Source: Escherichia phage ECO95 1-6-1. Taken from it: a stretch of DNA of 47,511 nucleotides. Under the pieces are notes generated by a model. That model worked only from the letters and a program-made list of their open reading frames with translations. It was not told the DNA's origin and did not search any database. The position numbers were made by a program, and so were the translations under genes. Below are positions 39,551 to 42,536 of the stretch, in pieces. Each line of letters begins with the position of its first letter. The first letter of the stretch is position 1. Where the stretch lies: the sequence record OR845258. The stretch is one strand, 5' to 3'.

Positions 39551-39593
39551 TTGACGTAGATTGATGAGGTGTTTATAGTTAGTGACGTAGAAA
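39551..39593 (+). promoter_or_regulatory. sigma70-like promoter of the plus-strand island
   Basis: TTGACGTAGATT at 39551-39562, then TATAGT 17 nt after the TTGACG; a second GTGACGTAGAA at 39583-39593. Confidence 0.5.
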
Positions 39594-39620
39594 CAACAAT
39601 AAATGTTAGAGGTGATGAAG

Positions 39621-40244
39621 ATGAGCAGTAACGCAAAACATTATGATTATTACATGGTTGAAGGTGCTGATGTTAAGAAAGTTATTAACGCATATGACGA
39701 CATCCAAAAGCGCCGCAATGAAATTCTCGGCGATGCCATGAAAAAGGTTGGTGCTATCGCATTTACCACAACGCGCAGTTGGGGTGCTGTTGGTGGTGGC
39801 TTGCTTGAGAGTTTTGTGTGGAGTAAGCAGTTTGAATTTCCGTGCCAAGTGACAATAAAGCGAGAAGACTTTTGGGAAGGTCAGCGTGTAATTGTGGCTC
39901 GCGGTAAGGGTAACACAAAAGACGGGCGAGAATACAACAAAAAGCTGGACGCAGTGATTCGCGAGGCAAACGAGAAATTAAAGTTATTGCCAGAATGGAA
40001 AGACTACATTGTTAATCATTACGGCATCGCACGCACAGGCATTGGCGAGCAATCAGGTCGCGGATTTGGTTTTGCAATGCTGTCTACTTATGGCGGCAAA
40101 CACCCGCAAAAGGATGATTGCCTGATTTTTGCCGTGCCAAATACAAAAGATGAAGGTCACGGACAGGTAACGATACCTGATAACTTTAAGCAGATAACCT
40201 ACGGTCAGTTTTACGATATTGCTAATTCTGGTGATGAGGAATAA
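39621..40244 (+). CDS. hypothetical protein (about 207 aa)
   Basis: First gene of the island; the ATG at 39621 has the best-spaced GAGGTG RBS (track start is 39603); Gly-rich core and acidic C-terminus. Confidence 0.5.
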   Translation: MSSNAKHYDYYMVEGADVKKVINAYDDIQKRRNEILGDAMKKVGAIAFTTTRSWGAVGGGLLESFVWSKQFEFPCQVTIKREDFWEGQRVIVARGKGNTKDGREYNKKLDAVIREANEKLKLLPEWKDYIVNHYGIARTGIGEQSGRGFGFAMLSTYGGKHPQKDDCLIFAVPNTKDEGHGQVTIPDNFKQITYGQFYDIANSGDEE

Positions 40245-40246
40245 TC

Positions 40247-40438
40247 ATGGCAAACATGTCCTACTGTCGATTTCGTAACACGGAGCAAGACTTCAATGAT
40301 TGTGTTGATGCAATTGGCAACATTGAGTCTATTGATGACTTAAGTAATTCAGAACGCAAGTCTGCTGAGCGCCTGTACTATCTTGCCAATGAGTACGTCG
40401 CATATTACGAGCAATTGTTAGAAGAAAGTGGTGAATGA
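40247..40438 (+). CDS. hypothetical protein (63 aa)
   Basis: ATG with GAGGA RBS. Confidence 0.45.
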   Translation: MANMSYCRFRNTEQDFNDCVDAIGNIESIDDLSNSERKSAERLYYLANEYVAYYEQLLEESGE

Positions 40439-40439
40439 T

Positions 40440-40628
40440 ATGAAAGATGAATTTATTGATTATGACGTTAAGCGACAAGAAATGGCTTCTGATGCAACGC
40501 TACGTGATTACTTTGCCGCAAAAGCAATGCAATCTCTATTAATTACATCACCAAATATGGGTTATGGCGAGAAGGCTGAACATGCTTACCTTATCGCAGA
40601 AAGAATGATGGAGGCGAGAGTTAAATGA
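40440..40628 (+). CDS. hypothetical protein (about 62 aa)
   Basis: ATG at 40440 (the track starts at a GTG at 40428). Confidence 0.4.
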   Translation: MKDEFIDYDVKRQEMASDATLRDYFAAKAMQSLLITSPNMGYGEKAEHAYLIAERMMEARVK

Positions 40629-41434
40629 AAACACTAAGCAAAATCTATTCAGACAAAGAAACGCGCAACGGAATCGCTGTGAACAAAACCTATCTCGTGC
40701 CAGTGGAGCAAATCTATCTGGAGCCTGGATATAACATCCGTGAAGCAGATGAGCAACACGTTGAATATTTCGCGCAGTGCTGGGAATCAGGACAGCCACT
40801 GCCAGCATTAACAGTTATTCCAGATGAGAAGGGAATCCGCATTCTTGATGGTCAGCACCGCTATCTCGGCGCATTGCGTGCCATTGAGCGCGGAGCACCA
40901 ATCGTTCGCATTGAGTGCAAGGATTTCACTGGCGACGAGGCTGACAAAATCGCCTTCATGGTGTCATCCAGTCAGGGCAAGCAACTCGACCCGTTTGAAC
41001 GCGCAAAGGCTTACACGCGACTGAAGGGTTTTGGCTGGACGAATGAAGAAATTGCCAAAAAGGTAGGCCGCTCAGTATCTGACGTGCAAATGCATCTGTC
41101 GCTGGGTGATGTTCCAGCGGAAGTAAAAGCGCGCATCAGTGCAGGACAAATCAGCTATGCAAATGCCGTAGCGGTAACGCGCGAACATGGAGATGATGCA
41201 GTAAAAGTTATCGACGAGGCGGTAGAAGAAGCGAGGGCGCAAGGCAAGGACAAAGTCACAGCAAAGGTGCTGAAGTCGAAAAAGATTAAGCCAGTAGACC
41301 GCCTGATTGAGTTATTGAAGCCAGCTGACCATGTGATTCTCCCTGCTGGTCATGTGGTGGCAGAGGATGAGGAATTTATCCAGATTCCTGTTGCTGATAT
41401 TCACGAGGTCATGGCAATTCTGGAGAAGATGTGA
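40625..41434 (+). CDS. ParB-like nuclease domain protein with HTH
   Basis: ParB N-terminal motif IRILDGQHRYLGALRA; helix-turn-helix WTNEEIAKKVGRSVSDVQMHLSL; GAGGCGAGAG RBS. Confidence 0.75.
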   Translation: MKTLSKIYSDKETRNGIAVNKTYLVPVEQIYLEPGYNIREADEQHVEYFAQCWESGQPLPALTVIPDEKGIRILDGQHRYLGALRAIERGAPIVRIECKDFTGDEADKIAFMVSSSQGKQLDPFERAKAYTRLKGFGWTNEEIAKKVGRSVSDVQMHLSLGDVPAEVKARISAGQISYANAVAVTREHGDDAVKVIDEAVEEARAQGKDKVTAKVLKSKKIKPVDRLIELLKPADHVILPAGHVVAEDEEFIQIPVADIHEVMAILEKM

Positions 41435-41796
41435 TGGGTGAACAGCCACTTGCTTTCAGACAAATAGAAAGAAAAGCTATCAAGAGCCATAAATGCTGCG
41501 AGTGTGGAAGAGAAATACACAAAGGAGATAAATATAAGTATTCATCAGGAGTATCATCGGAAAGAGATGCGTTTTCCTATAAACAATGCTTGATATGTAG
41601 TAAGGCATTCAATGCTGCATCTGACATCTCAGATTTCGATGACATACCATGCTTTACAGGCCTTAGAGAGTGGATGGGGAACTACTTCTCTCGAAATTAC
41701 CCTGCACAGAAAAGTGTGGATAGTATATGCATGGACTTAGGTTTAACAGAATCGGAAGTTCGATACATCATTCCAGCTAAGTGGTTGGTCCTATGA
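41434..41796 (+). CDS. hypothetical zinc-ribbon protein
   Basis: KCCECGREIHKGDKY...CLICSKAF cysteine pairs; GGAGAAG RBS; ATGA overlap with the ParB stop. Confidence 0.45.
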   Translation: MGEQPLAFRQIERKAIKSHKCCECGREIHKGDKYKYSSGVSSERDAFSYKQCLICSKAFNAASDISDFDDIPCFTGLREWMGNYFSRNYPAQKSVDSICMDLGLTESEVRYIIPAKWLVL

Positions 41797-41966
41797 ACGC
41801 TGAGCAATTCATCGAAAAACAACTTCGTGACAAGCTGCCTGACATTGACCAGATGGCAATTGATGCGGCAATCCAGTATTACAAGCGAAACCAGAGCACT
41901 AAGAAGGGTGGCATTTTTGAGGAATGCCTAAAGGTTGCAAAACAACACATGATTAAGGTGAAGTGA
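41793..41966 (+). CDS. hypothetical protein (about 57 aa)
   Basis: ATG at M5 of the track ORF; ATGA overlap with the upstream stop. Confidence 0.4.
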   Translation: MNAEQFIEKQLRDKLPDIDQMAIDAAIQYYKRNQSTKKGGIFEECLKVAKQHMIKVK

Positions 41967-42502
41967 TGAAACTAAAAATCAGCAAACTATTACTTGAGTC
42001 AGCATTGATATTTCAGGCTCGTAATGATGTGCGATACTACCTGAACGGCATCTGCTTTATGACTGATGGTCGCATTGCGTCAACTGACGGCCATCGTGCA
42101 TTCATTGGCGGAGTCCATGATAATAAGCTGACGGAAAATGTGATTATCAAGATTGGCAAGTCACCAACAAAGCGCTATGAGCACGCCATCATTGATACCG
42201 GGTCGAAAATTGCAACGTATCATGATGAAGCTGGCGCGATGGTTGGCGCTGGTATCTGCGAAGAGATTGATGGTCGATTCCCCGATATTGACCGCGTGAT
42301 ACCAAAGGAAACGAAAGCAGCAGAGGAAATAGGATTCAATACTGGCTACCTTGTTGATATTGAGAAAGTGGCGAAGCTGTTTAATCCTAAATTCTGTGGT
42401 GTCAAATTTGAACTGAATGGAAATACAAATGCAGCAGTTTGCTGCCTTAGTGCGCCATCTGGCGAGACTGCGAAGATTGTTGTTATGCCGATGCGTCTGT
42501 AG
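41966..42502 (+). CDS. truncated DnaN (beta sliding clamp)-like protein retaining the clamp's protein-binding cleft motifs
   Basis: 178 aa. NDVRYYLNG...STDGHR, DGRFPD..RVIPK, EIGFNTGY and exact C-terminus VVMPMRL correspond to E. coli beta-clamp domain II/III motifs (HQDVRYYLNG, ATDGHR, DGRFPDYRRVLPK, EIGFNVSY, VVMPMRL); no domain I equivalent; AAGGTG RBS; phage terminator downstream. Confidence 0.6.
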   Translation: MKLKISKLLLESALIFQARNDVRYYLNGICFMTDGRIASTDGHRAFIGGVHDNKLTENVIIKIGKSPTKRYEHAIIDTGSKIATYHDEAGAMVGAGICEEIDGRFPDIDRVIPKETKAAEEIGFNTGYLVDIEKVAKLFNPKFCGVKFELNGNTNAAVCCLSAPSGETAKIVVMPMRL

Positions 42503-42504
42503 CA

Positions 42505-42536
42505 ATAAAAAACCCGCATTATGCGGGTTTTGTTTA
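42505..42536. terminator. bidirectional rho-independent terminator
   Basis: Hairpin AAAAACCCGC-ATTA-TGCGGGTTTT flanked by A- and T-runs, between the island (+) and the minus gene ending at 42534. Confidence 0.55.

Follow-up and report, generated by a model that had tools for sequence, protein, structure and literature searches.

In Escherichia coli, all known partners of the sliding clamp beta (DnaN; PDB 1MMI/2POL) bind to a pocket that is formed by 18 residues (PMC11139829). Short homologues of polIII-beta were recorded in phages in 2011, as proteins that consist of domains II and III only and as putative processivity factors (Kazlauskas and Venclovas 2011), and in a 2016 paper the same authors left the function of these stand-alone homologues in polymerase-less phages as an open question. 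These reports do not contain an analysis of pocket conservation, of the missing half-domain or of the dispensability of the gene, and we found no functional study of this family in the literature. Here we analyse one such homologue, a protein of 179 amino acids (aa) to which we refer as mini-beta, and the unit of seven genes, running from a predicted promoter at 39551 to a terminator hairpin ending at 42531, in which it is encoded together with a ParB/KorB-like protein. The unit lies in Escherichia phage ECO95 1-6-1 (sequence record OR845258), and the whole stretch of 47,511 nucleotides (nt) that was analysed is called the window. We show how mini-beta retains almost all residues of the partner-binding pocket and lacks both sides of the ring interface, and how the unit is a fixed feature of this phage lineage and not a recent insertion.

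The window represents a complete phage genome of ~47.4 kb, with replication genes at 16561-23815 that encode a D5-type primase-helicase (Prim-Pol/PriCT_2/DUF3987), an AAA_24 ATPase, a DUF669 protein and an SNF2-type helicase. A domain scan for replication, partition and loader genes, which covered open reading frames (ORFs) of at least 200 aa and not all of the smaller ones, detected neither a DNA polymerase nor a clamp loader, and lacking a polymerase of its own the phage must rely on the replicase of its host. In this respect the phage differs from the herpesviruses, whose UL42 and UL44 have the clamp fold and are loader-free, but pair with a viral polymerase; the analogy with these proteins is functional only, as they show no specific homology to mini-beta. 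The same holds for Gp168 of phage Twort, which acts on the host clamp, yet is not clamp-like and targets the DNA channel. The replication module of the related phage Bas79 is annotated otherwise (primase, helicase, exonuclease VIII and a single-stranded DNA-binding protein), and the replication genes are thus mosaic within this phage group.

Mini-beta retains most residues of the partner-binding pocket of the beta clamp

The mini-beta gene is the last of the unit (41963-42502, plus strand), and its protein is probably 178 aa long, starting from the ATG at 41966. It matches E. coli beta in the PDB at 5e-14, by which the homology to DnaN that the initial annotation had proposed is real. The match comprises two segments, with mini-beta residues 8-155 corresponding to beta 136-289 and residues 119-179 to beta 313-366, and the C-terminus VVMPMRL is identical in both proteins. 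A profile of 133 diverse family members aligns to the same two segments at 4.5e-34. Mini-beta therefore consists of domain II and one beta-alpha-beta-beta-beta unit, or half, of domain III, amounting to about 1.5 clamp domains. The E. coli beta sequence that we used is of the correct length and consistent with the PDB alignments.

The segments that mini-beta retains contain every one of the 18 pocket residues. In the window protein 16 of these 18 are identical to E. coli, including those of the C-terminal MPMRL, against 40 of the 144 other aligned positions (Fisher p = 7e-7). The same bias is seen in the family as a whole, where among 133 representatives of at most 50% mutual identity the mean identity to E. 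coli is 0.72 in the pocket and 0.18 elsewhere. Near-invariant in the family are D22, R24, Y26, L27, T41, G43, H44, P107, I123, Y129, M175 and P176, which are equivalent to beta D150, R152, Y154, L155, T172, G174, H175, P242, I317, Y323, M362 and P363.

Lost, in contrast, are domain I and the first half of domain III, together with the ring interface on both sides and one helix of the channel. The dimer-interface residues of beta (I78, F106, I272, L273 and E298-E304) all lie in the missing parts; residues 272-304 have no counterpart in the best collinear alignment, although a stretch NPKFCGV partly resembles beta 275-281, leaving some ambiguity. In both the alignment and the AlphaFold2 (AF2) model, a short loop takes the place of the second inner helix of domain II. 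The Pfam models DNA_pol3_beta_2 and DNA_pol3_beta_3 score 18.5 and 16.1 bits, below their cut-off of 27, and TIGR00663 reaches 37 bits against a cut-off of 137.65, in keeping with there being no three-domain protomer of ~366 aa. Furthermore, mini-beta is basic where E. coli beta is acidic, the family having a median isoelectric point (pI) of 8.2 compared to 5.25 for beta, and a raised pI has been linked to processivity factors that do not form rings and do without a loader (Kazlauskas and Venclovas).

Could mini-beta nonetheless be a true sliding clamp, closing into a ring and providing the host polymerase with processivity on phage DNA? E. coli beta has an internal product, beta*, that consists of domains II-III and is reported to be a trimer, and like beta* the window protein has no domain I, its start corresponding to about residue 135 of beta. 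Besides this precedent, the homology to beta, the position of family members in the replication modules of Hafnia phage yong1 and Salmonella phage Lumpael, and the record of shorter phage homologues as putative processivity factors all favour a clamp. On the other hand, a protein of ~1.5 domains without the canonical interface residues, with a loop in place of the second inner helix of domain II and with a basic rather than an acidic pI is poorly suited to form a ring, no clamp loader was found among the ORFs scanned, and the gene is dispensable, as described below. We therefore consider a ring-forming clamp quite improbable, and the term mini-clamp used in the initial annotation unsupported.

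Among the ORFs of the phage we found none with a credible terminal clamp-binding motif. Any ligands of the pocket would as such be host proteins.

The unit is a fixed feature of the phage lineage

The seven ORFs of the unit are located on the plus strand, opposite to the surrounding structural genes, and are tightly packed between 39621 and 42502. Neighbouring genes abut or overlap, with one gap of +2 nt and overlaps of 4 to 16 nt, as is expected of a single, translationally coupled operon. For three of them the likely start is an ATG that overlaps the preceding stop codon (41434, 41793 and 41966), resulting in proteins of 120, 57 and 178 aa that match the annotation in relatives.

Upstream, a sigma-70-like promoter is predicted within 39551-39593 (plus strand), with the -35 element TTGACG at 39551-39556, a 17-nt spacer and the -10 element TATAGT at 39574-39579. 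A consensus scan gives it 10 of 12 matches; since the region holds 7 promoter-like sites where 6.9 are expected by chance, such a match is by itself weak proof of a promoter. The promoter does however carry the motif TGACGTAGAWW twice, at 39552-39562 over the -35 element and at 39583-39593 around the predicted start site, and each of the eight relatives compared has this pair, spaced 30-31 nt apart, at the 5' end of its unit, regardless of which gene comes first. At the other end, a G+C-rich hairpin of 10 bp with T-runs on both strands (42509-42531) is predicted to act as a bidirectional intrinsic terminator, common to the unit and to the converging unit of a 65-aa ORF and the capsid gene. Its fold has an energy of -17.2 kcal/mol (z = -4.1), and 'Terminator' features are annotated at this site in the records of Skate and ASO78B. 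With all seven ORFs, the conserved promoter pair and the hairpin in place, the description of a seven-gene, opposite-strand unit reaching from promoter to terminator holds, as does its autonomy, for which both signals are predictions that are kept across relatives.

A partial record of Salmonella phage S.Kent 1-2-1 matches the region at 100% identity, and siphophages of the Skatevirus/Akiravirus type that infect Salmonella and E. coli, among them KFS-SE2, Skate, seszw, LPST10, Akira and Bas77-81 of the BASEL collection, match it at ~91-92%. The same cassette is present in well over a hundred deposited phage genomes. In order to compare its content we searched with the window proteins (tblastn) in the fetched loci of eight wild-type relatives: KFS-SE2, ZCEC08, Akira, Bas79, seszw, the Klebsiella phage ZCKP8, the Aeromonas phage pIS4-A (Roufvirus) and the Salmonella phage CF-SP1 (Swiduovirus). 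The unit lies between the same flanking genes in all eight, which belong to at least four named genera, and both its position and its promoter are kept across Skatevirus, Akiravirus, Swiduovirus, Roufvirus and Klebsiella phages. Three core genes are found in every one of these relatives, with identities of 80-100% for the ParB-like protein, 74-97% for the 57-aa protein and 70-93% for mini-beta. The remaining genes are patchy, with the EaC gene in four of the eight, the gene for the 63-aa protein in two, that for the zinc-ribbon protein in one and that for the 66-aa protein in none.

This variation falls into two hot spots for exchangeable accessory genes that lie on either side of the ParB-like gene, the first upstream and the second just downstream. 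In ZCEC08 and Bas79 the slot after the ParB-like gene is occupied by a C5-cytosine methylase (PF00145, 1e-21), while in KFS-SE2 and seszw an 86-aa ORF with the RefSeq label 'anti-restriction protein' is found in the slot before it. The synteny comparison thus shows a unit that is kept in all eight relatives, with slots whose content varies, and presence among relatives is patchy for the genes of the slots and not for the three core genes.

In the window, the upstream slot holds three genes, all on the plus strand. The first (39621-40244; a longer ORF begins at 39603) encodes a protein of 207 aa that is 72% identical over its full length to clusters named 'Eac protein', while the Pfam model DUF5420 scores only 12.9 bits, below its cut-off of 26, and no solved structural relative of its fold was found. 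EaC, known from phage P22 (EaC/DUF5420), is shared with accessory regions of enterobacterial prophages, whereas the window copy is part of an operon in a virulent siphophage. The second gene (40247-40438) encodes an acidic 63-aa protein with a pI of 4.2 that matches phrog_8760 (3.7e-26), and the third (40428-40628) a 66-aa protein of which the match is to the C-terminal part of phrog_2201 only (3.9e-10). The downstream slot holds the gene of a putative zinc-ribbon protein (41431-41796, plus strand; 121 aa, probably 120 from the ATG at 41434), which has two CxxC pairs and matches only PHROGs without an assigned function. The third core gene lies between this slot and mini-beta (41781-41966, plus strand) and encodes a small basic protein, a 61-aa ORF that is probably 57 aa from the ATG at 41793 and matches phrog_4439 (4.8e-22). 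Throughout the Skatevirus-type phages this gene precedes that of mini-beta.

Genome-reduced mutants separate mini-beta from the ParB-like gene

The genome of the Skatevirus seszw has been reduced by means of a Cas9 library, and the mutant genomes were deposited (CiPGr; Yuan et al., PMC9825161). We re-read these deposits for the genes of the unit, using the 72 records that match the region of the unit plus capsid gene at 99% or more, most of which are genome-reduced derivatives. The interior of the mini-beta gene is still present in 47 of the 72 and missing from about 25; in seszw_250L, a genome of 38 kb, only the last 23 codons are left. The 57-aa gene (~173 bp) is missing from most of the mutants among those listed. 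The ParB-like gene, by comparison, is present in 70 of 70 records, its only variants being two in-frame deletions of 15 aa (MZ375305 and MZ375307), at about residues 55-69 and 160-174, one just before DGQHR and the other just after the helix-turn-helix (HTH). CRISPR escapes would be expected to leave such a pattern in a gene that the phage cannot do without. As such, mini-beta and the 57-aa gene are accessory under laboratory conditions, in the sense of being dispensable, and the ParB-like gene appears to be essential or nearly so.

These observations bear on the proposal, made in the initial annotation, that the unit is a moron or anti-defence island inserted into the structural operon, with freely exchangeable genes for defence or host takeover. 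Its own promoter and terminator, its orientation, the two hypervariable slots, the C5-cytosine methylase and the 86-aa 'anti-restriction protein' ORF found there in relatives, the sharing of EaC with accessory regions of enterobacterial prophages and the laboratory dispensability of mini-beta and the 57-aa gene are all what such an island would show. Against it stand the retention of unit, place and promoter in every relative examined, down to ~70-80% protein identity and over at least four genera, and the ParB-like protein, which is as conserved among relatives as the capsid protein and is never lost in genome reduction. Furthermore, none of the seven proteins in the window matches a characterised anti-defence protein, and the BASEL relatives are markedly sensitive to restriction-modification systems. 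We therefore regard a moron-type island as unlikely. Because position, core genes and the promoter motif pair are kept in eight relatives, the unit is a fixed feature of the lineage and not a recent insertion.

A divergent ParB/KorB-like protein and a shared promoter motif

The fourth gene of the unit (40625-41434, plus strand) encodes a core protein of 269 aa with a divergent N-terminal domain of the ParB/Srx type that contains DGQHR, a ParB-type HTH and a C-terminal region. Like members of the ParB/KorB family such as Spo0J, Noc and RK2 KorB, it scores above the Pfam thresholds for both HTH_ParB (44 bits against a cut-off of 22.6; 2.6e-11) and KorB (8.8e-6), and its alignment with Thermus Spo0J (1vz0; 6.5e-13, residues 40-202) reaches into the N-terminal domain. 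The protein belongs to phrog_1033 (1e-90), carries the RefSeq label 'ParB-like partition protein', and is 100% identical in seszw. Unlike the known family members, however, its N-terminal domain is not seen by ParBc (PF02195), neither in the window protein nor in its homologues, and DGQHR instead recalls ParB/Srx proteins of the DndB/DUF262 type, to which the matches are weak and below threshold (DGQHR E 0.007, GmrSD_N E 0.045). With no ParBc or nuclease model matching, the designation of this protein as a ParB-like nuclease finds no support.

Nor is it likely to be a partition protein. A module for partition or plasmid maintenance built around ParB, serving a pseudolysogenic or plasmid-prophage state, would be consistent with the family membership and the RefSeq label. 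Yet the motifs of the CTPase are altered, with GERR of Spo0J replaced by GQHR (in DGQHR; GQHRYLGA) and the catalytic ENLQR by SSSQG. No ParA-type ATPase occurs among the ORFs scanned, no palindrome that might act as a parS-like site is repeated three or more times in the genome, and the relatives are used as virulent phages. Taken together with the absence of a ParBc match, this led us not to classify it as a partition ParB, and we hold such a module to be barely credible.

The motif of the promoter, generalised to TGAYGTAGAWW, has 15 matches in the genome where 2.9 are expected, a number that none of 100 shuffled sequences reached, and the most frequent 12-mers of the genome are contained in it. 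The copies are located at 652, 678, 3486, 3515, 3542, 9267, 9346, 9363, 15264, 15281, 33852, 34430, 35930, 39552 and 39583, and are paired, in direct or inverted orientation, at the starts of non-structural cassettes. Twelve copies occur in Bas79, and none in the unrelated phage loci that we examined. The TTGACG part of the motif forms the -35 element, and TAGATT can act as the -10 of a tandem copy. TGAYGTAGAWW may therefore be a shared type of promoter, or an operator for some regulator.

Mini-beta in other phage lineages

At 50% identity and an E-value of up to 1e-3 the mini-beta family comprises 1941 clusters, and nearly all of the best 150 of the 1941 representatives are 165-215 aa long. 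Members are found in 303 deposited phage genomes, with hosts among the Enterobacterales, Vibrio, Burkholderia and others. In RefSeq and PHROG the family bears the label of a RusA Holliday-junction resolvase, yet homology to the RusA family was tested for and not found, the proteins being truncated homologues of DnaN. The entry phrog_3007, 'RusA-like Holliday junction resolvase', which has been copied to NC_054641, NC_054647, NC_005342 and others, thus appears to be a misannotation. The family had been noticed earlier, Bcep43 gp15 being annotated as 'DNA Pol III b subunit fragment'; this protein and its Bcep781 homologue belong to the same family, and Bcep43 gp15 is 31% identical to mini-beta of the window.

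In contrast to the Skatevirus-type group, the only one in which a ParB-headed operon was found, the other lineages that we examined carry the gene alone or within a replication module. The gene order of the lambdoid Hafnia phage yong1 is cII, mini-beta, O, P, and in Salmonella phage Lumpael mini-beta follows the genes for helicase, primase and Dam. In Dhillonvirus, Kagunavirus and Burkholderia phage Bcep43, by contrast, it is a lone opposite-strand gene within the head module. Among the loci fetched, such lone genes lie at 4001-4519 in TheodorHerzl, 3962-4483 in fFiEco03 and 3998-4579 in Bcep43, which represent three unrelated groups.

The recurrence of an opposite-strand gene in the head modules of Dhillonvirus, Kagunavirus, Bcep43 and the Skatevirus-type group might suggest that mini-beta couples the late transcription of head genes to replication, by means of a transcription factor docked in its pocket, much like T4 gp45 or the pair of Mu MuC and host beta. 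Phages are known to use clamps for late transcription (PMC12867686, PMC7892883). However, we found no phage protein with a terminal clamp-binding motif, seszw can do without mini-beta, and the position of a gene is in itself weak evidence. Moreover, the smallest seszw mutant, seszw_300L, whose mini-beta status was not checked, has virions of normal size by transmission electron microscopy and a reduced burst (PMC9825161). A role in late transcription is hence very unlikely. A literature search returned no transcript or virion-proteome data for the Skatevirus-type phages, and an RNA-seq paper on Kagunavirus names neither of the genes at issue.

Flanking genes and other opposite-strand cassettes

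The structural genes on either side of the unit are encoded on the minus strand. To the left lie the genes for the tail terminator (37144-37518) and a DUF7370 adaptor-type protein (38254-38682), to the right that for the major capsid protein (DUF6260; 42776-43846), and genes for a decoration protein and a DUF2213 protein also belong to this structural flank. The placement between connector and capsid genes is accordingly right in outline, and leaves unmentioned that two small membrane-protein genes (38627-39384, minus strand) and a conserved 65-aa ORF (42534-42731, minus strand) lie in between. None of the three small genes directly left of the unit (38627-39503, minus strand) is a connector gene. 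They comprise the gene of a membrane protein of 94 aa (phrog_13738, 'moron/host takeover'), that of a protein of 146 aa with a lipoprotein label, and a 39-aa ORF; of these, the 146-aa gene has been deleted from seszw_250L and is not found in ZCKP8 or pIS4-A. No minus-strand promoter for the connector genes downstream of the unit was detected in 39504-39620 or 42509-42731, and late transcription arriving from further right would have to cross the bidirectional terminator and an antisense stretch of 3 kb. That the genes of the unit itself are not morphogenesis genes, as initially proposed, is supported.

The ParB/mini-beta unit is one of several opposite-strand cassettes interleaved with the structural genes. 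Two more genes on the plus strand break up the row of tail and connector genes on the minus strand, each with TGAYGTAGAWW upstream: an HNH-AP2 homing-type endonuclease (33878-34378) and an antirepressor-like regulator of the Rha/KilAC type (35966-36631). A tRNA-Met (CAT; 37039-37115, plus strand) adjoins the tail-terminator gene, with a terminator-like hairpin behind it at 37115-37142, and in relatives the corresponding place holds tRNA-Met, tRNA-Arg or tRNA-Ile. Similar terminators, A-rich, with a G+C hairpin and T-rich (AAAGCCCC...GGGGCTTTT type), mark module boundaries throughout the genome, several of them looking bidirectional; the hairpins of this family lie at 2316-2343, 21534-21561, 35077-35104, 37115-37142 and 42504-42531. 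The ends of the window share an exact repeat of 77 nt (1-77 = 47435-47511), which leaves a unique length of 47,434 bp and looks like an overlap left by the assembly of a genome that is circularly permuted or circularised.

Discussion

The reading that we prefer, and to which we give an even chance of being right, is that of a conserved, self-contained and non-structural operon for DNA metabolism and the capture of the host replisome, which additionally offers slots for accessory genes. Host RNA polymerase would transcribe the unit from its own promoter. Mini-beta would then be a non-ring module of ~20 kDa, mildly basic, in which the host clamp's hydrophobic pocket is preserved, and would thereby capture host proteins that carry a clamp-binding motif, such as the Pol III subunits alpha and epsilon, the clamp-loader subunit delta, Hda, repair polymerases and MutS/L. 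It may work as an adaptor by which the replicase of the host is brought to phage DNA, or draw these partners away from the host chromosome as a decoy. Replisome capture fits a phage that encodes a primase-helicase and no DNA polymerase. Delta binds monomeric beta ~50 times tighter than the dimer (PMC11139829), from which delta would be an attractive candidate ligand of mini-beta. The ParB-like protein, the member of the operon that probably matters most to the phage, most likely binds DNA in the way of KorB, as a regulator or organiser of the phage genome and not as a partition protein, with the TGAYGTAGAWW promoter motif as its possible target. Both this role and the timing of the operon's expression are what we infer from the locus.

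We must however take into account several points that weigh against this interpretation. All of the binding partners of mini-beta named above are ones we infer. Plaques form in the laboratory without mini-beta, which is therefore no core replication factor. The AF2 model of the monomer is poor, with a pLDDT of 52, and the geometry of the pocket may have changed with the loss of half of domain III. Furthermore, in every beta clamp the pocket is conserved more than any other part, and common descent could in part account for its retention, and the lack of a terminal clamp-binding motif among the phage ORFs fits host ligands but is negative evidence only. As for the ParB-like protein, the essentiality of its gene is read from the deposited seszw genomes only and not from the authors' own gene classification, and TGAYGTAGAWW is not a palindrome and could be a plain promoter consensus (TTGACG + TAGATT).

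The cassette itself is already known as a widely deposited and uncharacterised one, and short polIII-beta homologues had been noted in 2011. What this study usefully adds is an analysis of the pocket in the truncated clamp and a second look at the seszw mutants, which point to the ParB-like gene as the one in the cassette that the phage appears unable to lose. In addition, the 'RusA-like Holliday junction resolvase' label that has been propagated for the mini-beta family is wrong.

A half-size clamp that keeps almost exactly the residues of the hub pocket, and loses the parts that make a ring, turns the question of stand-alone homologues in polymerase-less phages into a binding experiment, on a pocket that is also an antibiotic target. 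Extending the preferred reading to the family as a whole, we tentatively propose, while thinking it more apt to fail than to hold, that mini-beta proteins are loader-independent, non-ring clamp mimics by which phages without a polymerase seize replisome and repair proteins of the host, and that in the Skatevirus-type phages they are placed under a KorB-like ParB protein that controls the TGAYGTAGAWW promoters. If true, the clamp-mimic reading would explain what stand-alone polIII-beta homologues do in phages.

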